A stretch of DNA of 64,000 nucleotides, taken from an uncultured Vicinamibacteraceae bacterium (lineage in GTDB: Bacteria > Acidobacteriota > Vicinamibacteria > Vicinamibacterales > UBA8438). Under the pieces are notes generated by a model. The model had not been told where the DNA came from and did not search any database. It saw only the letters and a program-made list of their open reading frames with translations. Each line of letters starts with the position of its first letter. The first letter of the stretch is position 1. Both the position numbers and the translations under genes were made by a program. The stretch covers positions 18,316-82,315 of the forward strand of contig CAYFER010000005.1 of assembly GCA_964342185.1 (NCBI GenBank), read 5' to 3'. Below, in pieces: positions 9,782-61,371 of this stretch.

Positions 9782-11098
9782 ATGGACCCTGCGACTGGTG
9801 CTTTTGACCCGCACCATCCCCCTTCGTCCGACCTACTTGCCGATTGCGTGCACTGCGGGTTCTGCTTACCAGCGTGCCCGACCTACGCTTTGTGGAATCG
9901 TGAAACTGACTCGCCGCGCGGTCGCATCCATCTCATGAAAGTAGCCCTTGAGGGCAAAACAGAAATCACCGACGAATTTGCAAGACACTTCGATACTTGT
10001 CTCGGTTGCATGGCCTGCGTGACCGCCTGTCCATCCGGTGTGCAGTATGACAAGTTAGTCGAGGCGACACGGCCCCAAATCGAACGTCGCATAGACCGTT
10101 CGAAGAGCGACCGTTTGTTTCGCCGAATCATATTTTCACTGTTTCCTTATCCGACCCGACTACGCTGGATAGCATTAAAATTGTGGGCCTACCAACGCTT
10201 GGGTGTGCGATGGTTCGTGCGGAACTCTGGCCTACTCAGCCTTTTGCCCAGAAAACTCAGAGCAATGGAGGCAATGGCACCTCCGATTGCATTTGGTGAG
10301 TTGTTTTCCTCGATTCCAGCACGAATACCCACCGTAGGAAAACCACGTAAAAGGGTTGCTTTCCTACTCGGCTGCGTCCAGCGGGTCTTTTTCAGTAACG
10401 TCAATCAAGCAACGTTGCGTGTGCTGGCGGCCGAAGGCTGCGAAGTAGTCATTCCTCAGGGCCAAGGCTGCTGCGGAGCACTGATGTACCATGCCGGACA
10501 AGAAAACGATGCGATCGCAATGGCTCGACAGTTCATAGACGAATTTGACAAGGAAATCGATAATGTTGATGCCATCGTCATCAACGCCGCTGGCTGCGGG
10601 TCCACACTCAAACAATACGGCCATATCCTCGCCGACGACCCTATCTATTCGGCCAAGGCGAAAGCCCTTTCCGCTAAATGTCGTGACATCTCTGAATTAC
10701 TTGCCGAACTTGAGCCAAGAGCACCACGTCACCCACTTCCCATTCGGGTCGCTTATCACGATGCATGTCATCTTCGGCATGCTCAGAATGTCATCAGCGA
10801 ACCACGTCAAGTATTAGCCCAAGTCCCGAAACTCGACGTTCGCGAAATTCCTGAAGCCGGAATGTGTTGTGGGTCGGCGGGTATCTATAACCTTGTCGAA
10901 CCAGAAGCAGCGGAACAACTCGGTGCTCTCAAAGCGAAACAATGCCTCTCAACTGAAGCCGACACAATAGTTTCATCAAATCCCGGTTGTCTACTTCAAA
11001 TAAAATCATCTTTGGAGCGAAGTGGACGCACACTGCGGACAATGCATCTAGTGGAAATTGTTGACGCGTCGATCCAAGGTCGAAACATCAACGGATAG
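9782..11098 (+). CDS. glcF: glycolate oxidase iron-sulfur subunit (GlcF/GlpC family)
   Basis: 438 aa. Two ferredoxin-type clusters, CVHCGFCLPACPTY and CLGCMACVTACPSG, followed by two CCG domains (CCGA...; CCGSAG). Confidence 0.8.
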   Translation: MDPATGAFDPHHPPSSDLLADCVHCGFCLPACPTYALWNRETDSPRGRIHLMKVALEGKTEITDEFARHFDTCLGCMACVTACPSGVQYDKLVEATRPQIERRIDRSKSDRLFRRIIFSLFPYPTRLRWIALKLWAYQRLGVRWFVRNSGLLSLLPRKLRAMEAMAPPIAFGELFSSIPARIPTVGKPRKRVAFLLGCVQRVFFSNVNQATLRVLAAEGCEVVIPQGQGCCGALMYHAGQENDAIAMARQFIDEFDKEIDNVDAIVINAAGCGSTLKQYGHILADDPIYSAKAKALSAKCRDISELLAELEPRAPRHPLPIRVAYHDACHLRHAQNVISEPRQVLAQVPKLDVREIPEAGMCCGSAGIYNLVEPEAAEQLGALKAKQCLSTEADTIVSSNPGCLLQIKSSLERSGRTLRTMHLVEIVDASIQGRNING

Positions 11099-11147
11099 CT
11101 AGACCGTCTCCCCAACTGCGCTCTCAGATTTGACCAAGAAGACCACC

Positions 11148-12431
11148 TCATAGGCCGCCTGGACCGCGACCTACGTTCAGCAGATTCCCTGGGTCGAACC
11201 GTTGTTTCACCGCTTGCATCACCCGCATACCATCACCAATCTGCCCCCACACGCCAACCTCTTGGCGGAGCTTGGCGTCACCCTGGCGGATGACGGCCGA
11301 ACCACGCCCGACCGGCAGTCGCTCACGAAGTTGGTTGATTAACCGGGCTTGCAAAGAAAACGAGCCGTCTAGACGAACGTCAACAATACCAAGACCCGCC
11401 CGGCCGGATACGGACATACTTATTCCCTGCGAGGTCGCCTCTCTACGTAACCAGACTAATGTCGAGACCAACTCAGCTGGCACACAAACCAACTTGAGAA
11501 GTGTGCCGTCAATTGACGACGACCAATGTGTTGAGTGCTGTTCCCAACGAGTAGTCTCTTCCTCAGCCGACAAGATTCGGCTTGCCCCGCGTGCCCCCAA
11601 GAGAGCACAGACCTCTGTCGCTTGCTGAGCGACGGCCTCTTCAACTGATTCGAAGCGAACCAGCAACTGCGTCGACGTCACAGTTGATGCAAGTTCAAGT
11701 GCCGTCGGCGTTAGAGACGAGGTTGATAGGTCGCTCACTACCTCCCCAGACAGGTCAAGCGAGTCAAGAGCAAACTCAACTGTGCGAGAGGCTGGAGCCA
11801 GCGGCGCCAACTTGAATGTCGCCGTTATAATTACGCCGATACACCCGAACGAACCAGTTAACAACCGAGATAAATCGTATCCAGCAACGTTTTTTACGAC
11901 AATACCGCCTGCCTTGGCCACTGCTCCATCAATACGTGCAATCGTTAAACCAATGATGGAATCACGGACTGACCCGTAACCGTGTCGACGAGGGCCGCTG
12001 TCATTCGTTGCCACAATGCCACCAATCGTTGCGCGGTCGGCCCACGGTGGATCCCAAGGCAACCACTGACGCTGTTCTGTTAGTGTCTTATTCACCGCTG
12101 ACAACGGCGCCCCACACTCAACCGTGGTAGTAAGGTCGCCGTGCCGGTGGTCTATCACCGATCGTAGACGAGTCGTTGAGAGAAGTAGGTCGACGGGACC
12201 GCTAGGCGCTCCCCACGTTAGCTTGGTGCCGCCTCCAACCACTGACACCGTGAGACCCTCAGACGACGCCCATCCAAGGATTTCGGCAATTTGGTCAGCA
12301 GTGGATGGCTCAACTAGTAGACGCGGGCGCACACCGTCAAACACATCATCGTCAGTTGACACACGGGCCGAGTCTCCGCCTGATCGACTTCTGAGCTCGG
12401 ATAAAAGCGTGTCGATGGATACCACCGTCAT
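11148..12431 (-). CDS. glcE: glycolate oxidase FAD-binding subunit GlcE-like
   Basis: FAD_binding_4-type fold (VVGGGTKL.WG, ...KNVAGYDL.RL..GS.G). The start is placed at the internal ATG (MTVVSIDTLL), which forms an ATGA overlap with the glcD stop at 12431-12433. The ORF-track start at 12500 would overlap glcD by 70 nt. Confidence 0.7.
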   Translation of the reverse strand: MTVVSIDTLLSELRSRSGGDSARVSTDDDVFDGVRPRLLVEPSTADQIAEILGWASSEGLTVSVVGGGTKLTWGAPSGPVDLLLSTTRLRSVIDHRHGDLTTTVECGAPLSAVNKTLTEQRQWLPWDPPWADRATIGGIVATNDSGPRRHGYGSVRDSIIGLTIARIDGAVAKAGGIVVKNVAGYDLSRLLTGSFGCIGVIITATFKLAPLAPASRTVEFALDSLDLSGEVVSDLSTSSLTPTALELASTVTSTQLLVRFESVEEAVAQQATEVCALLGARGASRILSAEEETTRWEQHSTHWSSSIDGTLLKLVCVPAELVSTLVWLRREATSQGISMSVSGRAGLGIVDVRLDGSFSLQARLINQLRERLPVGRGSAVIRQGDAKLRQEVGVWGQIGDGMRVMQAVKQRFDPGNLLNVGRGPGGL

Positions 12432-14008
12432 CACAGGCGATCCGCCACCCCTAAAGTCTCGGCCGGGTGGCGACGATAGGGTCCCGGCACTTCGCCACAC
12501 AGCCGAGGTGTTGGGAACACTTTGCCCGGGTTACAGATGAAATCAGGGTCAAACGCACAGCGAACGAGTTGCATCGTGTCAAGATCACTGTCGGTAAACA
12601 TCTTGGGCATGTGCTTAGCTTTGTCGGCACCAACACCATGCTCACCCGTAATCGACCCACCGACATCAAGACAGTAAGTCAAGATCTCGGATGCAACATC
12701 TTGGGCCAGATCCGCCTGGCCCTCGATCCGATCGTCATAACAAATGAGCGGGTGAAGGTTGCCATCGCCGGCATGAAACACATTCCCGATTTTCAATCCT
12801 GACCTCTTGGCCAGTGACGCAATCCGATTTAACACTTCGGGAAGTTTCGTCCTCGGAATCACGCCATCTTGGACGTAGTAACTCGGTGACACTCGGCCCA
12901 TCGCAGCAAAAGCTGCCTTCCGCCCTTGCCAAAATCTTGCCCGCTGCTCGTCGGTCTTGGCCACCTGGATCTCTCTGGCGTTGGCTTCAGCACAGACTTT
13001 CTCAACGTGTACGAAGAGCGCGGCAACATCTGCCTCGGCACCATCAAGTTCGACAATGAGGACGGCTTCAGTTTTCGGAAAATTTGGGTGAACGGCCTCT
13101 TCAGCAGCTTCGATAGTCAGTCGGTCCATCATCTCAATCGCCGCCGGAATAATTCCAGCACCGATAATTCCAGAAACTGCGTTTCCGGCCGCTCCAGTTG
13201 AGTCAAATGCAGCCAGCAAAGTCTTAACAGCTGCCGGCTTTCGTAAAAGATTTAACGTAACTTTCGTAACAACTGCGAGCGTCCCTTCTGACCCGACCAG
13301 TACGCCCAGAATGTCAAGACCCGGAGCATCGCGTGCCGGACCACCTAAATGAACGATTTCCCCATCTGGTAACACTGCTTCAACACCAAGCACATGATGG
13401 ACCGTGAATCCGTACTTTAAGCAATGGGCGCCACCTGAATTCTCAGCAAGATTCCCGCCGATCGAACAAATGACCTGGCTCGACGGATCGGGCGCATAGT
13501 AATAACCATCACTAGCCACAGCCTTGCTAACATCAAGGTTCATGATGCCTGGTTCAACCGTAATACATCGATTCGGCAGATCGATTTCACAGATGCGATT
13601 CATCCTTGTCAGAACAATTAGGACGCCGTCTGGATGCGGCATGGCTCCCCCAGAAAGCCCCGTGCCTTGGCCTCGCGCTACAAACGGCACGCCCGACTCG
13701 TGGCACAGACGCACTACCGCTTGCACCTGCAGAGTGGATGTCGGCAAAACGGCAACGCCTGGCTTCGACCGAAGCTTAACCAAGCCATCCGTTTCATAAG
13801 TCAACAACTCGCCGGCATCGCAGACAAGACCATCGGAACCAACGATGACCTCAAGCGCATCGAGAAAATCTTTCTCCAATTTATCTACCCAATCCGTTGT
13901 CCTTGAAACAACTCTCGTTACGGCCTCGAATACTGGTCGATAACACGAGACAGCGCTCGCTGACAGACTTGACAGAATCCAACCGGGTTTCGTGTAAACA
14001 TAATGCAA
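12431..14008 (-). CDS. glcD: glycolate oxidase subunit GlcD (FAD-linked oxidase)
   Basis: Contains VVRLCHESGVPFVARGQGTGLSGGA, KNSAGY-like NLAENSGGAHCLKYG, GSITGEHGVG and RCAFDP....NPGKV. The ATG at 14008 overlaps the upstream M64 gene by about 90 nt. A TTG at 13879 (LEKDFLDALEVIVG) is a plausible alternative start. Confidence 0.85.
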   Translation of the reverse strand: MHYVYTKPGWILSSLSASAVSCYRPVFEAVTRVVSRTTDWVDKLEKDFLDALEVIVGSDGLVCDAGELLTYETDGLVKLRSKPGVAVLPTSTLQVQAVVRLCHESGVPFVARGQGTGLSGGAMPHPDGVLIVLTRMNRICEIDLPNRCITVEPGIMNLDVSKAVASDGYYYAPDPSSQVICSIGGNLAENSGGAHCLKYGFTVHHVLGVEAVLPDGEIVHLGGPARDAPGLDILGVLVGSEGTLAVVTKVTLNLLRKPAAVKTLLAAFDSTGAAGNAVSGIIGAGIIPAAIEMMDRLTIEAAEEAVHPNFPKTEAVLIVELDGAEADVAALFVHVEKVCAEANAREIQVAKTDEQRARFWQGRKAAFAAMGRVSPSYYVQDGVIPRTKLPEVLNRIASLAKRSGLKIGNVFHAGDGNLHPLICYDDRIEGQADLAQDVASEILTYCLDVGGSITGEHGVGADKAKHMPKMFTDSDLDTMQLVRCAFDPDFICNPGKVFPTPRLCGEVPGPYRRHPAETLGVADRL

Positions 14009-15492
14009 TCTATTTCAGAACGATACAGACCAAGCGCTTCATAAGAAGCGCCCTCGAAGGCCCCTACTCTGTCTGCGTATTCCATAGAACCAAGAGCCGT
14101 AGTTTCGTTCTCCATTTGTTCGGTAAATAAACGATCGATCTCGGTTTCTGCGACTCCTTGCCGGCGCAATTCTCGGCGTTCAGCTTGAGCCGCCGAACTC
14201 GCCGACTCGAACTCGTTTTTGTCCCATGGAGTCGGCAATGGGGTGTCAGCTGAAACTAAATCACGCCATTTCAGATTCGCCGGATCGTGAAGCGCGGTCA
14301 CATTGGGCTCCCAAGGTTCTGGATGATACGCGTTACCGGTCTCGTAGGCGACATCAGATGTGTAGTACTCATCAGCGAGTCCAGCAAAATGATGTCCGAA
14401 CTCGTGAACAAAGACATATTCCGAAAACCCTGTATCGGCCGCCACAGTGGCCTGAAAATTGAAAATTCCTCCACCACCATACTGTTCCTCATTGACCACG
14501 ATCTCAAGAAACTCATAAGGGGCAGCGGACGCGGCATCTCTTAACGCCCGATTATCGTAAGTGAGCAAGTAACGTTCAGAATCGAAGATGTTGTACTCAG
14601 CCGATAAAGGACTTCGACGAAACTCCATGGCCCTGGGCCGAGAAACACCAGACTCTGATGAAGGCAAGTCTAAGCCCCACACATTGAAATCGGAGCGCCG
14701 GCTCCTAAACGGCTCCTCATCAAACAACGCATTAACCAGACGCTCTGCGTCCATATGAAACTTCGGAATTTCTTCGGCCGTATATCCCTCGCTGATAACA
14801 AGAAGGTCAACCTTGTCAGACGGTGGCCCGCTGTCGATAATCGGCCAAACCTCTCCCGCCGAAACTCGGTCCGTTGGGTTGACAAAGCGGGACTCTGGAT
14901 CGATTACAGTCGACCAAATTTCGTGAAAACTGTTCTCGCTATCTCGAACTTTCAGCACGACCTGTACTGGCCGCTTCGGCCACGGAAAGCGAAGTGACTC
15001 GTGGAAGGTCGCATGAACCTGCCGCGCAGCAGGTGTTGTCTCCCACTCCCCATAAATAGATGCAAAGCCCCTTGAATAGATCACACGATTCGTCGGCCGG
15101 TCGATGACTTCAAACAGATACTTCCCCAGATTCAGATGATCGATAAGCCTGGTACGACTGCCAGCCCAGGGTCCATCAGACACGATTTGGTCAAGGGCCA
15201 AGACCTCCGTACCAAGACCGCCGGAATGAAAATAATCAACCCGCATAGTCTTATCGACGAAGTTCTCGTCGAAAACCTTGAGTTCATCGACTGGCTGATG
15301 AGCCTGGAGTGCCCAACTGAGCCCTCCCAATATACGAGTAGTTTTACTTTGAGTGAGACCGACCTTGGCGAACTGAAACACCCAGCCTGCACTAACAGCC
15401 AGAATGGCTGCCACTAAGATTCGCGCCACCCTCGTCCATATGTCTTGCATAAGACATATATTACCGGTAGGCGAGCGCGAAGAATTCCGCAT
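13918..15492 (-). CDS. M64 family (IgA-peptidase-like) zinc metallopeptidase, secreted or membrane-anchored
   Basis: 524 aa. N-terminal hydrophobic segment, and the zinc motif VFVHEFGHHFAGLADEYY that I recognise as the M64 signature (HEFGHxFxGLADEY). Confidence 0.75.
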   Translation of the reverse strand: MRNSSRSPTGNICLMQDIWTRVARILVAAILAVSAGWVFQFAKVGLTQSKTTRILGGLSWALQAHQPVDELKVFDENFVDKTMRVDYFHSGGLGTEVLALDQIVSDGPWAGSRTRLIDHLNLGKYLFEVIDRPTNRVIYSRGFASIYGEWETTPAARQVHATFHESLRFPWPKRPVQVVLKVRDSENSFHEIWSTVIDPESRFVNPTDRVSAGEVWPIIDSGPPSDKVDLLVISEGYTAEEIPKFHMDAERLVNALFDEEPFRSRRSDFNVWGLDLPSSESGVSRPRAMEFRRSPLSAEYNIFDSERYLLTYDNRALRDAASAAPYEFLEIVVNEEQYGGGGIFNFQATVAADTGFSEYVFVHEFGHHFAGLADEYYTSDVAYETGNAYHPEPWEPNVTALHDPANLKWRDLVSADTPLPTPWDKNEFESASSAAQAERRELRRQGVAETEIDRLFTEQMENETTALGSMEYADRVGAFEGASYEALGLYRSEIDCIMFTRNPVGFCQVCQRALSRVIDQYSRP

Positions 15493-15515: not shown

Positions 15516-16271
15516 TCAATCGCTGACAGCGAGTTCCCCAGGAACGATCGGCTTTGTGCGGGGTAATTTGCCACGATACGACAACCATCCTACAAACCCC
15601 AAGAGTCCAAGAAAGACTAATAACTTTCCGGCATCGGCTGTTCGACTCTGAGGAAGGACGGCCCACAAAAACCACAAAACTGGCTGTGCCAAACACACCG
15701 CCCAACACGCTCCATAGAAGTATCGTCGTTCGTGACCTTCACCCTTCGTCGACCGTTTAACTCGCGGGAGTTGGCCGAATCCACCAAGGATCCAGATACC
15801 TCCAGCGATCGGAAAATAGGCAACTTCGTATATCTGCCGCAAATACCACTGGCCTGACACTAACGCTATTACGAGACCGCTAATATTCAACACTGCAAAC
15901 GTGAACACCGCACTCCACGCGAACGTATAGCAAATGCGGCGATAGAGTGGATTCGGTTTATCCTCAGTGAAGCGGATGATATAGGGCCGAGGTTCGACAC
16001 CGGGCAGTCGGCCCCGCAGGCCAGCAATACCGGTAACAAAGAGCACCGCGCCAAGCCACATCGCCATCCTGCCGTCAAAACCGGTTTCAAACAGATCAAA
16101 CGTCAGTGGACCCGGAGCAATAAAAAACACCCAGATCCAAATCGGCCAATGTGACAACCGATAGTGAATCTTGTTGCGATGTCGAATCTTTCGATCACTC
16201 GCCAACTCGACAGGTATCCCGACACGGTCGTCAGAACCTGGATCAGCGGGCGATGGCACACTCTGCGTCAT
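15516..16271 (-). CDS. hypothetical polytopic membrane protein
   Basis: 251 aa with about 6 hydrophobic segments (WPIWIWVFFIAPGPL, AMWLGAVLFVTGIAGL, etc.). No motif recognised. Confidence 0.5.
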   Translation of the reverse strand: MTQSVPSPADPGSDDRVGIPVELASDRKIRHRNKIHYRLSHWPIWIWVFFIAPGPLTFDLFETGFDGRMAMWLGAVLFVTGIAGLRGRLPGVEPRPYIIRFTEDKPNPLYRRICYTFAWSAVFTFAVLNISGLVIALVSGQWYLRQIYEVAYFPIAGGIWILGGFGQLPRVKRSTKGEGHERRYFYGACWAVCLAQPVLWFLWAVLPQSRTADAGKLLVFLGLLGFVGWLSYRGKLPRTKPIVPGELAVSD

Positions 16272-16394: not shown

Positions 16395-16958
16395 TTATTG
16401 CACTACTCTTCGGCGGCGATACTCAGCTAGAACGGACAAAATACTTTGAACCGGGGCATTGTCTCCAAAAGTTTGACTTGCATGGATGAAAAGATCCTGA
16501 TTGCCTGGAGCAAAAACAAAACTGCCGCCTAGTTGAAAAGGGTCCCTACCTAATCGGTGCTGTCGGTGACCATCCGCCTTCGCCTTCTTCCGAGCCGAGA
16601 AATTGTCACGGCGGAACAAGTCAATCAGACTGGCGTTTCTAAGACTCGCTGCCCGATACGCGCGACGTTCTTCATCAACGAGAAGTGGGAAAGTGACTCC
16701 TGTTGCTTCCCGAAAGTGCTGAGCATAGTGGATATCTCCAAGGCCAATTGCAGCCAATACACCTCCCTCATCTCGAATTTGTGATTCAGAGTCCCGCAAC
16801 TGCGAGACATGCTGCCGGCAAAAAATTCAACCGTAGTGCCGCAAGAACACTACAACTGCAGGTTGGGCTTCCCAAATGGAACCAAGGAGAACTTCGCCTC
16901 CATCTGAGTCCCGAAGCTGGACGGGCGCAAGAATTGCACTTACTTCAGATTTACTCAT
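16395..16958 (-). CDS. peroxiredoxin-like (AhpC/TSA, Prx-like2 type) thioredoxin-fold protein with in-frame TGA at 16827-16829; candidate selenoprotein with a U-x-x-C motif
   Basis: ATG at 16958 gives MSKSEVSAILAPVQLRDSDGGEVLLGSIWEAQPAVVVFLRHYG-TGA-IFCRQHVSQLRDSES..., in frame with track ORF 16395..16799. That ORF's first residue is TTG codon 54 of the long reading. The TGA sits where the family has the first Cys of FLRHxGCxxCR. Confidence 0.7.
16787..16814 (-). promoter_or_regulatory. SECIS-like stem-loop downstream of the in-frame UGA
   Basis: Minus-strand RNA CAG-CAUG-UCUCGC-AGUU-GCGGGA-CU-CUG. It has a 6-bp upper stem (one G-U pair), an apical loop AGUU containing GU, and a lower CAG/CUG stem. 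The loop starts 25 nt after the UGA, within the distance typical of bacterial SECIS elements. Confidence 0.5.
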
Positions 16959-17020
16959 CTTGACTTATTCAGGAAATACTTCGCTTATGGTCAACCTCAA
17001 ACTCTCATTTCGGCATTCTT

Positions 17021-18235: not shown

Positions 18236-18533
18236 ACTGTTCTACCGGTGGAATCGATCGCCAAGAGTTTTAGCGTAGCACCACAACAACCGGTTCAACG
18301 GGCATTAGGATACGGGCTTCATTCCCAAGTGAACGATTAGCTCTCTGACTTACAGTTTATAGAAGGACGCAACCTGACGTGAGGCTGGACACTTCGTTGT
18401 GTCTCCTCGATGGACCAAATGCTATTCTAGCGCTCGAAGACGTGTCAGTTTGACGGGGAACGGTGAGGGCTGCATGCCCCAAAATGTCAGGCGCGACGGT
18501 GTGCAGGCTCGCAGGTTGCCAAGGAGGTGCCCC

Positions 18534-19547
18534 ATGGCAATTACATGTAGCGGAATTCAGCGCGTGTTAACAGCAGTTACCATCATGCTGTTCAGTGCTG
18601 CCTTAGTCGAAACCCAACAATCTACTCAGGACGCGCCGACGACACCAAGAACCCCGTGGGGAGACCCAGATCTTCAGGGAGTTTGGACGGGTTCCACCGT
18701 TACTCAGCTTGAACGGCCGAGAGAATACACAGCAAAGGTCTTTCTCACAGAAGAAGAAGCCGCGGCACTTGAGCGAGAGGCAATGGCACAGCAATTTGCT
18801 CCTCGACCCGTCGACCCGAACACGGGAACACCACTGACAGAGGGTGGTGTTGGCGACTACAACCCCGAGTGGTTTGATTCAGGGACAGCTGTCCTGCCAT
18901 CGCGGCGAACCTCCCTGATCGTGTCTCCGATTAATGGGCGCATTCCATACAAGCCAGAAACGTTGGAAACCGAACGACCGTACGGAATCGGCCCCTACAA
19001 CTCTTACCTCGATCTCGATACCGGAGAACGTTGTCTTGGGGACGGCGTGGTAGAGATGATTTGGCTCGGTTACAACCCGAACCACCAGATTGTGCAAACA
19101 GCTGACCATGTAGTGATTCTCCATGAGATGTGGCGTCAACGGCGCATTATTCCTCTAGACGACAGTCCACATATTGCACCTGGAATCCGACAGTGGAATG
19201 GAGACCTGCGAGGCCGTTGGGACGGAGACACCCTTGTCGTCGAATCAACGAATTTCGTCGACAGATGGCAAGACTATCGCTTTAACCCAAACCATCTCTG
19301 GCGAGCCCCATCTGCAACACTGCAGCTAATGGAATCCTTCAAGCGGCTCGATGCCACAACGATGTTGTACCGGGTGACCATCACCGATCCTGAACGATTC
19401 AGAAGACCTTGGACGATAGAGACATACCTAACAACTGACCAAGCGTCCCGGGGCGTTACGACAGGTCCGATCTATGAATACGCTTGCCACGAAGGAAACT
19501 ACGGCGCACCTAATATGCTTCGCGGTGCACGAGTCACAGACAAGTAA
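18534..19547 (+). CDS. secreted protein, unnamed paralogous family (copy 1): PRTPWGDPDLQGVW ... WNGDLRGRWDGDTLVVESTNF ... YEYACHEGNY
   Basis: The start is moved to ATG 18534, preceded by AAGGAGGT with a 5-nt spacer, which yields the signal peptide MAITCSGIQRVLTAVTIMLFSAALVETQQ. Motifs are shared with 19642-20592, 20751-22001, 35644-36675 and 40040-40978. Confidence 0.7.
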   Translation: MAITCSGIQRVLTAVTIMLFSAALVETQQSTQDAPTTPRTPWGDPDLQGVWTGSTVTQLERPREYTAKVFLTEEEAAALEREAMAQQFAPRPVDPNTGTPLTEGGVGDYNPEWFDSGTAVLPSRRTSLIVSPINGRIPYKPETLETERPYGIGPYNSYLDLDTGERCLGDGVVEMIWLGYNPNHQIVQTADHVVILHEMWRQRRIIPLDDSPHIAPGIRQWNGDLRGRWDGDTLVVESTNFVDRWQDYRFNPNHLWRAPSATLQLMESFKRLDATTMLYRVTITDPERFRRPWTIETYLTTDQASRGVTTGPIYEYACHEGNYGAPNMLRGARVTDK

Positions 19548-19641: not shown

Positions 19642-20592
19642 TCACCGCACATACAGTTGGTCAGGGGGCGGCACCTTACGGGTAATGTCGACTATCAAAG
19701 TTTCACCTTCCCAGCGTCTGACCAGCTGCTCCTTACGTAAATGTCCAAATTGTAATTCTTCGACAAACTCTTGGCAGCGGTACTCCAACAACTGGATATC
19801 CGGCTCCAGGCGACGGTACAGCGGCATCGATATCTTCCACGGACGGGTGAATACCTCAGGGTCATTTATGGTGACCTCATAGTGGATGGCATCAGGTGTG
19901 AGCGGAGTAAACTTCTCGACTAAATGCAATTGGTTGCTGTGGAAGTTACCCGCCCGATCAAACCAGGACTGGTCGTTGAAATCCGTCACTTCGACGACGA
20001 GCGTATCACCTTCCCATCGGCCAACAGAGTGCCCCATCCATTTGTAATCGGGAGGGCCTTCCACTTCGTCAAGATGAATAACGCGGGCGGCGTTTGAAAA
20101 GGTAAACGTCATATAAATCTTGTTAGTACTCTGAGTAATCTGAAACGGGTAGGGCATATACATAGCCCTGGGAACCCCTGGAAGGAAGCAGTCGATCTCG
20201 GGATCTCGGTCGAGCCAGTTCTCAGCATTCTCCTGCTTCTGGGCAGCAGCTTCTGGAGTGTAGGGAATCTGTCCGTCGCCGTCGACCACGCCCAGAGAAC
20301 CCGGCACCCCTCCCGCCGCACCAAATGGAAGCGAAGGTGCCGCCGGCACTTGGACGTACGGCAAATCGTAGGCTCCTTGCTGTACCACTGCACCGGCGCG
20401 CGCGGCATGGGCTTGAAGATCCCAATGAGCTTCGTTGTTGGCCTGCCAGATACCACTAAAATTTGGATGACCCTCGGCGGTGCGTGCGGCGCGAACGGTT
20501 TGCCCTGAAGGACTTATAACCGATGCGGAAATAATGGCACCCACTGCCGCCGCGGTAAATACGAGTATAGAAACGGATGTCCGGTTTCTCAT
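19642..20592 (-). CDS. secreted protein, same paralogous family (copy 2, divergent)
   Basis: 316 aa. Signal peptide, then RTAEGHPNFSGIWQ, DCFLPG, GHSVGRWEGDTLVVEVTDF, FTRPWK and LLEYRCQEF (in place of CHEGN). A second WEGETLIVD motif sits at the extreme C-terminus. Confidence 0.65.
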   Translation of the reverse strand: MRNRTSVSILVFTAAAVGAIISASVISPSGQTVRAARTAEGHPNFSGIWQANNEAHWDLQAHAARAGAVVQQGAYDLPYVQVPAAPSLPFGAAGGVPGSLGVVDGDGQIPYTPEAAAQKQENAENWLDRDPEIDCFLPGVPRAMYMPYPFQITQSTNKIYMTFTFSNAARVIHLDEVEGPPDYKWMGHSVGRWEGDTLVVEVTDFNDQSWFDRAGNFHSNQLHLVEKFTPLTPDAIHYEVTINDPEVFTRPWKISMPLYRRLEPDIQLLEYRCQEFVEELQFGHLRKEQLVRRWEGETLIVDITRKVPPPDQLYVR

Positions 20593-20750: not shown

Positions 20751-22001
20751 CTACCGCAAGGCCAGTGGATCGAGGCCCTCGGTGTTGAGTCCACATGTAC
20801 CAATGCACAGAGACGCAGGATGGCGACCGCTGCCCTGCTCGTAGGCTTGCTCGACTGCACGCGCCCCGGCCAACGCCCCTACCATGCCGAAATTGCCCTC
20901 ATGACAACGGGGTTCCGTATAGATGCGATTTGCCTCATTGCTCTGAAGTTTGAACTCTTGGATGACAGTCCACGGTCGGGTCCAGACTGTCGGATCCTCA
21001 AAAGTGGAAACAACCTCAAGCGTATCCGGACCGGTACGAGTCCAACGCTCGACAATATGCAGGTTCTCACGGGACCCCTGGAAATCCGTCTTTGGGGTAA
21101 AGTTAGTTACGTTGACGACCAGTGTCTCACCCTCCCATTGGCTGCGTGAATCTCCCCACCACTGACGGAGATTTGAAGGTAAATGCGGTGCCGTGGTAAC
21201 AGGGATGTTTCGCGAAAAACCTTGCCCTTGAGCGGCATCGTAGTACACCGTCACAACGCTTGGTGATTGCACAATCCGACGGTACACCCCCACAAAACCA
21301 CCACGAATGGAAGGCAGATTACCAGTCATACAGCGTTCACTTAAACCGCGGTCTTCTGGTCCGTCTGCCCGGTTGATGGGGCCAACACCCGCAGATGGGT
21401 ACTCAGGAGGGTCCTCCAAAAGCCGTGGCGACGGTGGCCCGTACTGTCCACCTTGGCAGGCAAATTCGTTGTCCCGGCAAACTTGAGTATTCTGCAAGAG
21501 AGCTAACTGGTACTGCCGGTACGCAGCCTGTCTCTCCAGCGCCTCCGGTGTGTAGGAAGGCATCTTGCCATCCGGAGGGTCGATAATCATCGCGGTGCGC
21601 TTCCCCGTGGGCCTTTGTGAGGTGTAGACCGCATTGTAGGCGCCGGTGACATCAGCCTCAGTTCCAGGCGCAGCCCGCACATGGTTACCAAAGACCGATT
21701 TGTCGGCTCGCGCGGTATCAAGCTCGGCAACTTGCTCGTCAGTGTAGAACTCCGTGGTGACTCCCGCGGGGCGTTCCAATGGAACGAGCAATTCAACACT
21801 CCAAATACCCTGGAGGTCTGGCTCACCCCATGGCGTCCTAGGCACGGAAGCTGTGGATGACGCCGGAGCGACGTTCTGCGCGGTAGCCGGACGAAGGCCA
21901 GCTACCCTGGTTTCTGCTCGGCCATCGACATTCACCATGGCCCCCAACCCAAGTGCGACCACGGACCCAATGCTGAGTCCTCGGACTAGTGAATAGCCCA
22001 C
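20751..22001 (-). CDS. secreted protein, same paralogous family (copy 3)
   Basis: 416 aa. GTG start preceded by AGGAGG with a 6-nt spacer. Contains VPRTPWGEPDLQGIWS, SERCMTGN, WWGDSRSQWEGETLVVNVTNF, WTRPWT and TEPRCHEGNFGMVGALAGARA. Confidence 0.7.
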   Translation of the reverse strand: MGYSLVRGLSIGSVVALGLGAMVNVDGRAETRVAGLRPATAQNVAPASSTASVPRTPWGEPDLQGIWSVELLVPLERPAGVTTEFYTDEQVAELDTARADKSVFGNHVRAAPGTEADVTGAYNAVYTSQRPTGKRTAMIIDPPDGKMPSYTPEALERQAAYRQYQLALLQNTQVCRDNEFACQGGQYGPPSPRLLEDPPEYPSAGVGPINRADGPEDRGLSERCMTGNLPSIRGGFVGVYRRIVQSPSVVTVYYDAAQGQGFSRNIPVTTAPHLPSNLRQWWGDSRSQWEGETLVVNVTNFTPKTDFQGSRENLHIVERWTRTGPDTLEVVSTFEDPTVWTRPWTVIQEFKLQSNEANRIYTEPRCHEGNFGMVGALAGARAVEQAYEQGSGRHPASLCIGTCGLNTEGLDPLALR

Positions 22002-27474: not shown

Positions 27475-27599
27475 CGGGGCTCACCGCGACCCGGATAAAC
27501 CTGCGGCACATGTCAGTGACTACTTAGCGCTGCTGCCTTCCGGCCCTGACGCGGTTCGTAGGCTGAAATTGCACAGGATCCGAGCCGCGGGGCGACCCG
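27475..27599 (-). ncRNA. ffs: signal recognition particle RNA (small/4.5S-type SRP RNA)
   Basis: The minus strand contains ...CCGCGUCAGGGCCGGAAGGCAGCAGCGCUAAG..., which is the conserved domain IV motif with a GGAA tetraloop. The flanks pair over more than 19 bp (CCGCGGCUCGGAUCCUGUG with CGCAGG-UUU-AUCCGGGUCGCGG). Position upstream of dnaX-ybaB-recR is a common arrangement. The ends are approximate. Confidence 0.75.
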
Positions 27600-27890: not shown

Positions 27891-27980
27891 GGAGAGATGT
27901 CCGAGTGGTTGAAGGAGCACGCTTGGAAAGCGTGTGTAGGGGAAACTCTACCGTGGGTTCGAATCCCACTCTCTCCGCCA
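27891..27980 (+). tRNA. tRNA-Ser (GGA), long variable arm, CCA encoded
   Basis: GGAGAGATGTCCGAGTGGTTGAAGGAGCACGCTTGGAAAGCGTGTGTAGGGGAAACTCTACCGTGGGTTCGAATCCCACTCTCTCCGCCA. Anticodon loop TTGGAAA. Confidence 0.9.
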
Positions 27981-30814: not shown

Positions 30815-30905
30815 TGGCGGAGAGGGTGGGATTCGAACCCACGTGCCGGTTACCCGACAAGACGCTTTCGAGGCGCCCCCGTTACGACCACTTCGGTACC
30901 TCTCC
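30815..30905 (-). tRNA. tRNA-Ser (CGA), long variable arm, CCA encoded
   Basis: Minus strand GGAGAGGTACCGAAGTGGTCGTAACGGGGGCGCCTCGAAAGCGTCTTGTCGGGTAACCGGCACGTGGGTTCGAATCCCACCCTCTCCGCCA. Anticodon loop CTCGAAA. Confidence 0.9.
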
Positions 30906-60771: not shown

Positions 60772-61371
60772 TTAGCCCAGACGTCGATTTACCTCATCCC
60801 AATTGATTACGTTGAGCCAAGCTTTCACGTAGTCAGGACGCCGGTTCTGATAGTTCAGATAGTAGGCATGCTCCCATACGTCAATCCCTAGAATTGGTTT
60901 CTTCCCTTCCATTAAGGGCGTATCCTGATTTGGGGTACTTTCAACACTCAAAGTATCACCCCCGTCGACTAGCCACGCCCAGCCACTTCCGAACCTGGTA
61001 GCCGCGGCGGTAGCAAACTGTTCTGTGAAGGCCTCATACGATCCAAATACACTGGTGATTACTTCAGCCACCTTTCCGGTTGGGGACCCGCCACCAGACG
61101 GCGCCATCAACTGCCAGAACATAGCGTGGTTTGCGTGTCCACCACCATTGTTCCGCACAGCACCTCGAATCGCTTCGGGAACACTTCCAAGATCAGAAAC
61201 CAATTGATCGATATTCTTAGCCGCTAGGTCATCATGGCCATCGAGCGCCGCGTTAAGTTTCGCGATGTACGTCGCATGGTGTTTGTCATGATGAATCCGC
61301 ATCGTCTGTTCATCAATGTGCGGTTCAAGAGCATTGTAATCATAGGGCAACAGCGGCAATTCATAGGCCAT
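60772..61371 (-). CDS. Fe/Mn superoxide dismutase
   Basis: 199 aa. [32 protein letters not shown] and ...[14 protein letters not shown] did not attempt to assign metal specificity. Confidence 0.95.

Follow-up and report, generated by a model that had tools for sequence, protein, structure and literature searches.

A probable selenoprotein gene of the AhpC-TSA_2 family in a Vicinamibacteraceae bacterium, cut short by automated annotation

Ever since the Sargasso Sea and Global Ocean Sampling (GOS) surveys, UxxC 'peroxiredoxin (Prx)-like' proteins have ranked with the most abundant selenoproteins of bacteria (PMC1088965; PMC2398784). The deep-Sep supplement lists among the known selenoproteins an 'AhpC/TSA family protein, pfam13911, WP_276571921.1', in which selenocysteine (Sec, U) is embedded in ...VFVRHFG-U-LICRQQVADL..., and the 'AhpC/TSA family protein 2' of Desulfosarcina widdelii with the sequence ...VFLRHYG-U-PFCREQVAQLR... 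(PMC12013277). For the Acidobacteria a survey of 2006 recorded three families with four selenoproteins, documenting the phylum as a Sec user (PMC1794560). Sec use by Acidobacteria is documented in the deep-Sep work as well, where the acidobacterium Occallatibacter riparius is listed with AhpD-like, deiodinase-like and FdhA selenoproteins only (PMC12013277). The text of a 2026 review leaves PF13911 and NF040769 unmentioned and lists a cd02970 'peroxiredoxin-like family protein' with a UxxS motif. Here we describe a gene on the minus strand of a 64-kb stretch of DNA (64,000 nucleotides of contig CAYFER010000005.1, assembly GCA_964342185.1; in the following the window) from an uncultured Vicinamibacteraceae bacterium. 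The gene spans positions 16395-16958 and carries an in-frame UGA at codon 44. Judged from comparative sequence analysis, it is very probably a genuine selenoprotein gene in which this UGA is decoded as selenocysteine. A selenoprotein at this place had been proposed earlier from the letters of the window (the original prediction); its statement that Prx-like selenoproteins occur in bacterial surveys is borne out by the two marine reports cited above.

The coding sequence (16395..16958, minus strand) comprises 187 codons from the ATG at 16958 to the TAA at 16397-16395. Its translation reads MSKSEVSAILAPVQLRDSDGGEVLLGSIWEAQPAVVVFLRHYG*IFCRQHVSQLRD...VVQ*, with the TGA at 16829-16827 as the sole internal stop and TAA as the terminal stop. 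By comparison with its relatives this TGA (16827..16829) would encode U44, the first residue of a U-x-x-C redox motif. The TGC codon of Cys47, the putative resolving partner, is situated at 16818..16820 and aligns with C47 of prostamide/prostaglandin F synthase (PGFS). The N-terminal 43 codons 5' of the UGA (16830..16958) form an open and conserved frame but are omitted by automated calling of open reading frames (ORFs). In the mechanical ORF list the gene appears as two entries in one shared frame, a 43-aa ORF with an ATG start (16827..16958) and a 134-aa ORF with a TTG start (16395..16799); the TTG "start" of the latter is the codon of Leu54 and sits within the loop of a hairpin described below. 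On re-translation all coordinates and strings given by the original prediction for the ORFs, the TGA and the hairpin were found to be correct. A search of the window for other genes split by a TGA gave 59 mechanical candidates; apart from the present gene, all of them were out-of-frame shadows or junctions of genes, with no redox motif.

Relatives of the gene were sought among proteins and in genomes. The protein search covered 5.8 billion proteins and returned 1731 matches falling into two length classes of about 177-186 aa and about 124-140 aa. The genome scan used one genome per species (GTDB) and confirmed relatives in 327 stretches, of which the best 80 loci were examined. These 80 species-representative genomes, the metagenome contig L081 and the window make up a set of 82 sequences; the amino-acid identity of the relatives to the window protein is 58-98%. 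The full-length homologues of about 177-186 aa read FLRHYG-C-IFC-REH (FLRHYGCIFCREH) and thus have cysteine at the U column. The DNA of these Cys forms has TGC or TGT at this column, and the flanks are conserved on both sides. In the 82-sequence set the column is occupied by TGA in 82 of 82 cases, and additionally in contig L098. The TGA is preceded by (F/L)LRH(Y/W)G and followed, after two variable residues, by TGC or TGT, the Cys47 column being TGC in 81 sequences and TGT in one. The codon right after the TGA is ATC, ATT or GTG. The exchange of Cys and Sec at one column, on which the original prediction had relied, is therefore found between the full-length proteins and the genomic relatives.

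The part upstream of the TGA is conserved as well. No locus has fewer than 38 open codons ahead of the TGA, and the start codon lies about 42-43 codons from it. The residues L15, L25, G26, W29, L39, R40, H41 and G43 are invariant, and the synonymous entropy of this part equals the background. Invariant residues together with freely varying synonymous sites mean that the upstream part is translated in the same frame. The TGA in 82 of 82 sequences and the conserved open upstream frame exclude an error of sequencing, a pseudogene private to this genome and a true start further downstream. The original prediction would have fallen with a TGA that is a private assembly error or with homologues that begin in the downstream TTG region; the TGA is kept across species-level genomes, and the frame is open upstream of it everywhere.

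The best 80 loci belong mostly to Acidobacteriota, namely to Vicinamibacteraceae (98% and 94% identity; the clade of the window), Terriglobia, Bryobacteraceae, Ca. Angelobacter and Thermoanaerobaculia, and a minority to Binatus, Dormiibacterota, Limnocylindrales and proteobacterial metagenome-assembled genomes (MAGs). In seven MAGs (L004, L013, L025, L036, L051, L072 and L078), labelled Gammaproteobacteria, 'delta proteobacterium', Ca. Binatus, Limnocylindrales or Dormiibacterota, we observed a near-identical architecture and the same hairpin. Such occurrences are due either to horizontal transfer of the gene together with its selenocysteine insertion sequence (SECIS) or to mis-binning or mislabelling.

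The shorter length class consists of truncated proteins. Public proteins of 124-140 aa in NCBI, JGI and ENA start just past the U column (MFCREH, VFCREH), and in NCBI these fragments are labelled 'peroxiredoxin-like family protein'. The predicted truncation by automated annotation has thus taken place: the annotation is wrong both here and across the public databases, and the gene is routinely cut to 134 residues in soil Acidobacteriota. Correcting the annotation restores the active site of the protein. Two full-length homologues in JGI, P0013 and P0020, have Trp at the Sec column. The DNA of P0013 has TGA at this place (L098:438-440), and its Trp is apparently an artefact of a gene caller using a code in which TGA is Trp. 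Public protein sets can therefore conceal Sec codons behind a spurious W as well as in truncations.

A hairpin directly follows the redox motif. Starting 12 nt after the UGA, the RNA of the window can fold as CAG-CAU-GUCUCGC-AGUU-GCGGGAC-U-CUG. The core hairpin GUCUCGC-AGUU-GCGGGAC (16791..16808, minus strand) has a 7-bp stem and a loop at 16801-16798, which starts 25 nt past the UGA, and overlaps the codons of V51-D56. An extended hairpin with a 3-bp CAG/CUG lower stem (16787..16814, minus strand) is part of the minimum free energy (MFE) fold of the window sequence. The hairpin alone has a folding energy of -9.9 kcal/mol. According to the published model, bacterial SECIS (bSECIS) elements have a loop of 3-9 nt, an upper stem of 4-16 bp, a G in the first two loop positions, a distance of 16-37 nt from the UGA to the loop and an MFE of at most -7.5 kcal/mol (PMC13188914). 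With the loop AGUU, 7 bp, a spacing of 25 nt and -13.8 kcal/mol the window hairpin lies within all of these bounds, as the original prediction had expected of a SECIS element. In the MFE fold, 65 of 81 orthologues pass as well, and in 63 of these the loop and the spacing are identical to those of the window hairpin.

Among the 81 distinct orthologues the element has the common form GUCGCGC-AGUU-GCGCGAC, with no change in the AGUU loop. The five core base pairs are retained in 97-100% of them, and the stem mostly extends to 6-7 bp. The hairpin of the original prediction is accordingly present as drawn and conserved in its core, but its CAG/CUG lower stem is not conserved: RNAalifold keeps a 5-bp core, and the lower stem is probably not a required part. 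A scan of 16650-16960 against Rfam at a permissive threshold returned noise only. Distant Sec-form relatives from Desulfosarcina (UPFCREQVAQLR and UPFCRRHMAQLR) encode A-Q-L-R equally far past the U, a peptide for which GCG-CAG-UUG-CGC codes in the acidobacterial hairpin. Going by these protein letters, the SECIS sequence may be much older than the acidobacterial clade.

The hairpin overlaps the codons of R48-R55, and constraint on the RNA was separated from constraint on the protein by means of the synonymous-codon entropy and of Cys-form control genes, which were gathered with a TGY-specific DNA pattern and a protein look-up. The synonymous entropy was at background level throughout the gene except for a drop at codons 48-55. 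There Ala52 is encoded by GCG in 99%, Gln53 by CAG in 100%, Leu54 by TTG in 99% and Arg55 by CGC in 93% of the sequences, whereas all other Leu columns are mixed with CTG or CTC as the commonest codon. The mean entropy deficit amounts to 1.16 bits at codons 48-55 and to 0.16 bits elsewhere (Mann-Whitney p = 2e-5). In the Cys forms both the peptide and the codons vary at the site of the hairpin, and Leu is encoded by CTG, CTA, CTC, TTA or TTG. A TTG codon for Leu54 was found in 81 of 82 Sec forms versus 4 of 11 distinct Cys forms (Fisher p = 3e-7). The comparison demonstrates that selection acts on the hairpin at the RNA level and that this selection is relaxed in genes of the Cys form.

Large entropy deficits were also seen in three Ser columns, and we attribute them to effects of the AGY and TCN codon blocks. 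A few Cys forms retain most of the hairpin sequence: the region L091:707-736 (P0004) has GTC GCG CAG TTG CGG, and L083 and L089 have GTC GCG GAG TTG CGC. By their sequence these remnants look like relics of a recent conversion from Sec to Cys within the clade.

For the assignment of the protein to a family the product was searched with U replaced by C. The match to Pfam PF13911 (AhpC-TSA_2) exceeds the gathering threshold (57.2 bits, cutoff 27, E = 2.6e-15), and a weaker match to PF00578 (AhpC-TSA; 40.8 bits, residues 13-107) spans the TGA. The sole NCBIfam match is NF040769, 'SelL-related redox protein', over residues 12-176 (E = 3e-34). Among proteins of known structure the best sequence match is human PGFS (PRXL2B; 9us9) with E = 5e-11. 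The predicted product is a 187-residue cytoplasmic thioredoxin-fold oxidoreductase of the AhpC-TSA_2 family (PF13911, 'peroxiredoxin-like 2' or SelL-related).

An AlphaFold2 model was made for the Cys homologue P0003, which is 63% identical to the window protein, from an alignment of 26 sequences (pLDDT 90.6, pTM 0.88). In this model strands at residues 13-16, 21-23 and 33-37 precede the CxxC motif, and a helix comprising residues 44-55 starts there. Foldseek placed PGFS first (TM-scores 0.81/0.88), followed by PrxQ/BCP, AhpE and ResA. According to the homologue model a single thioredoxin fold includes, as an integral element, the 43 residues encoded ahead of the UGA. As three beta-strands lie before the CxxC, neither the 43-aa nor the 134-aa fragment could be expected to fold alone, and the model thereby agrees with the earlier statement that neither of them is a complete thioredoxin fold.

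Three better-known types of protein were considered for the product and rejected. A typical peroxiredoxin of the Prx or AhpC/BCP type does not fit: the motif is G-U-I-F-C, arranged like the CxxC of thioredoxins, without PxxxTxxC/U, and there is no Thr three residues before the nucleophile. A thiol:disulfide oxidoreductase of the Prx-like type known from Geobacter shares only a local match of 57 residues with 28% identity, and its motif differs. SelL, which occurs in eukaryotes and marine bacteria, is known for its UxxU motif (in part PMC2398784; PMC13188914). SelL proper can be set aside too, the second motif position being TGC (81 sequences) or TGT (one sequence) and TGA in none of the 82, which makes the motif UxxC and not UxxU.

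Several observations weigh against decoding of the UGA as selenocysteine. The NF040769 score of 118.1 bits narrowly misses the curated cutoff of 120 bits; the scores of close relatives, from 105.2 to 127.3 bits, lie on either side of it. The fold of the window sequence (-13.1 kcal/mol) has a z-score of -0.96, and 31 of 200 shuffled sequences were as stable. The lone window hairpin is thus not beyond chance, and it is the comparison across relatives that puts the combination of TGA and hairpin far beyond it. The bSECIS model is permissive, since 4 of 13 Cys-form controls pass it by way of unrelated hairpins. Covariation in the stem amounts to one compensated change (G-C to U.G) in three related sequences, a single event in the clade of the window, with a score of 0.062 versus 0.042 in shuffled alignments of this near-invariant element. 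So little varies in the element that covariation is all but lacking, and consequently the support for the hairpin comes from sequence and synonymous-site conservation and not from covariation. Since A-Q-L-R, the peptide specified by the hairpin, is conserved too, the nucleotide conservation is partly due to the protein level. Finally, neither selA, selB and selD nor a tRNA-Sec was found in the 64-kb window (ARAGORN, Rfam and Pfam scans of about 50 ORFs), and no tRNA-Sec was found in the flanks of 60 orthologues.

We considered three other explanations for the UGA. It could be read through without selenocysteine, by a suppressor-type tRNA or by a tRNA-Sec-like tRNA-Cys with a SelB paralogue that inserts cysteine or another residue. 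The conserved hairpin would then serve an alternative recoding, and insertion of cysteine would yield a CxxC protein. Mukai et al. described allo-tRNAs of Acidobacteria as possible missense or nonsense suppressors, and selC* tRNA-Cys species with opal anticodons alongside selB* copies in some anaerobic bacteria (PMC5389517); the lack of Sec machinery in the window would fit such a system too. However, selC* and selB* were reported from Firmicutes, Thermodesulfobacteria, Nitrospirae and Proteobacteria and not from Acidobacteria (PMC5389517). To keep a UGA and a hairpin merely for cysteine would be pointless, as Cys forms with TGC or TGT exist and work. Moreover, the hairpin loop bears the G-U signature known from SECIS elements of the SelB type, the selenoprotein catalogue includes homologues that have this motif, and a general suppression of UGA is unlikely with 40% of the window genes stopping at TGA. 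We regard read-through without selenocysteine as very unlikely. The same low probability applies to its specific form in which the UGA and hairpin are decoded by an acidobacterial tRNA-Sec-like allo-tRNA (PMC5389517) instead of SelB and tRNA-Sec. If it were true, the gene would be the first case in nature of a suppressor system of this kind serving a client across a whole phylum.

Less likely still is that the UGA simply terminates translation, in a pseudogene, through an assembly error, or in a split gene that yields only the 134-aa ORF from the TTG at 16799 or another start. The gene callers of several public pipelines do produce proteins of 124-140 aa, and the window hairpin taken alone is not significant. 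Against termination stand the TGA at one column in all 82 sequences at 58-98% identity and the in-frame purifying selection at the protein level on the 43 upstream codons. The 134-aa product would, by the homologue model, lose the first Cys/Sec and half of the sheet. Furthermore, ATC, ATT or GTG follows the TGA, and what was called as a TTG start is merely the conserved Leu54 codon in the hairpin loop. The smallest probability of all we assign to a genome-wide reassignment of TGA to Trp or Gly (codes 4 or 25), for which the W at the U column of P0013 and P0020 could be quoted. As stated above, the W of P0013 arose from a caller reading over a TGA. TGA is the terminal stop of 21 of the 52 long window ORFs and likewise of many orthologues of the gene itself, hence the genetic code is not reassigned. 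No other long ORF in the window needs read-through of a TGA in a meaningful motif, and Trp or Gly at the position of the CxxC nucleophile would inactivate the enzyme.

For insertion of selenocysteine at codon 44, a mechanism can be proposed from what has been established on Sec decoding in bacteria and on thioredoxin-fold enzymes with a CxxC motif. The hairpin in the coding sequence would fold as the ribosome nears the UGA and serve as the bacterial SECIS element. SelB with GTP and Sec-tRNA(Sec) would bind the AGUU hairpin and bring Sec to the A site at codon 44, in competition with release factor 2. In the folded protein U44-I-F-C47 would be placed at the N-terminus of helix alpha-1, with the selenolate as the nucleophile attacking an oxidised substrate. 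By mere analogy with PGFS, the substrate may be a disulfide, a peroxide or a compound of the endoperoxide type. The selenenylsulfide formed with Cys47 would then be reduced by a thiol reductant such as thioredoxin.

The window has a GC content of 52% and is ordinary chromosomal sequence. It contains queA, fabH, ruvABC, yebC, a glcDEF-like oxidase set, a peptidase M64 gene, recR and dnaX, and further a signal recognition particle (SRP) RNA, ubiD, leuA, a TonB-type outer-membrane protein, moeA/mog, an Fe/Mn superoxide dismutase gene and nadA. A gene for a leucine-rich repeat protein is situated directly upstream of the selenoprotein gene. Across 81 loci no conserved neighbours were found beyond close relatives, the top 'cluster' being the antisense shadow of the gene itself. 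It is therefore a stand-alone gene, and its surroundings give no operon-based hint at function or substrate.

A set resembling glycolate oxidase (9782-14008), composed of an Fe-S/CCG protein on the plus strand and two FAD_binding_4 proteins on the minus strand, lies downstream of the selenoprotein gene. Between them are a 251-aa ORF without Pfam match and the peptidase M64 gene. The arrangement recurs in L081 and is not kept in other lineages, and the set is probably unrelated to the selenoprotein gene. Within it the ORF of an FAD-linked oxidase (12431-14008, minus strand; 525 aa, TTG start) overlaps by about 90 nt with the 3' end of the upstream peptidase M64 gene (13918-15492, minus strand). 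Going by the 482 aa called in the syntenic contig L081, the real start of this oxidase is probably further downstream. Four sizeable ORFs of 251-416 aa beside the selenoprotein gene are without a Pfam match at E <= 1e-5 (18399-19547 on the plus strand; 19642-20592, 20751-22001 and 15516-16271 on the minus strand), and the related contig L081 has genes of matching or similar size (251, 337, 316 and 416 aa). In Rfam scans of the window at gathering thresholds only SRP RNA and tRNAs were detected. The features concerned, at 27486-27585 (minus strand), 27891-27980 (plus strand) and 30815-30905 (minus strand), are a small bacterial SRP RNA (75.2 bits), which adjoins dnaX-recR, and two tRNA-Ser (GGA and CGA). 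Both long-arm tRNAs are thus tRNA-Ser, and neither is a tRNA-Sec. The Fe/Mn superoxide dismutase gene (60772-61371, minus strand) is about 44 kb away from the selenoprotein gene and has no evident link to it.

Given the predicted Sec decoding, the gene marks the Vicinamibacteraceae organism as a user of selenocysteine. As relatives were confirmed in 327 stretches and the best 80 all have TGA, the sequences suggest that decoding of Sec is common among the Acidobacteriota of soils, where this phylum is dominant; surveys list very few selenoproteins for it. The clade of the window may represent a selenoprotein of these bacteria that is uncatalogued and possibly dominant, a reading much likelier than decoding by an allo-tRNA. 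If this is true, the use of Sec in Acidobacteriota would be far wider than the three or four surveyed selenoproteins. The near-invariant hairpin within the ORF, GCGCAGUUGCGC, which encodes A-Q-L-R, could be used as a marker for re-annotating such genes. The value of the finding lies chiefly in annotation and in the ecology of selenium use, and the understanding of Sec recoding is unchanged by it.

Compared with known systems, the hairpin is like the SECIS of the E. coli fdhF type and the bSECIS model in being located directly 3' of the UGA inside the ORF and in having a small loop with G then U. It differs from them by a very short tetraloop hairpin without a bulged U, by a lower stem that is not conserved, and by a sequence that is nearly invariant throughout the phylum, in place of a conservation of structure only.

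The Geobacter protein WP_010940744.1 (Table 1 of PMC13188914; 'Prx-like 1' in the GOS survey, PMC2398784) likewise has a UxxC motif, a Prx-like thioredoxin fold and a SECIS within the coding region. Its similarity to the window protein is weak and local (28% over 57 residues, pairwise E = 7e-5), its motif is FYRGAW-U-PYC compared with FLRHYG-U-IFC, and its N-terminus carries an additional helical region of about 60 residues. By these sequence differences the Geobacter-type Prx-like protein belongs to a different subfamily. NF040769/SelL likewise has a thioredoxin-like fold in which the redox motif is equally placed, and SelL has been called 'a Prx-like protein' (PMC2398784). However, the window protein stays below the NF040769 cutoff and has UxxC in contrast to the diselenide UxxU of SelL. 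PRXL2B (PDB 9us9/9usa) is the best PDB match in sequence and, for the homologue model, in fold, as stated above, and its catalytic C44-x-x-C47 (GCvvC) aligns exactly with U44-x-x-C47 (GUifC) of the window protein. It differs in being eukaryotic, in having Cys instead of Sec and in an identity of only about 20-23%, and nothing points to the handling of prostaglandin endoperoxides by a soil acidobacterium.

Closest are the catalogued selenoproteins of pfam13911. WP_276571921.1 aligns end-to-end with U on U (30% identity over 160 aa, E = 3e-28), and so does the D. widdelii protein 2 (34% identity over 169 aa, E = 5e-26). Together with the window protein they belong to PF13911, have 179-187 aa and share VF(L/V)RH(Y/F)G-U-xx-C-R-(E/Q)-x-V-A-(Q/D)-L. 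As the catalogued members align U on U, neither the family nor the Sec position nor the type of SECIS is new. The window clade is only 30-34% identical to these members, is centred on Acidobacteriota (Vicinamibacteria, Terriglobia and Thermoanaerobaculia) and is characterised by its almost invariant hairpin. The alignments place the window gene in a divergent acidobacterial clade of a known selenoprotein family; this clade and its very wide occurrence in soil Acidobacteriota may be previously undescribed.

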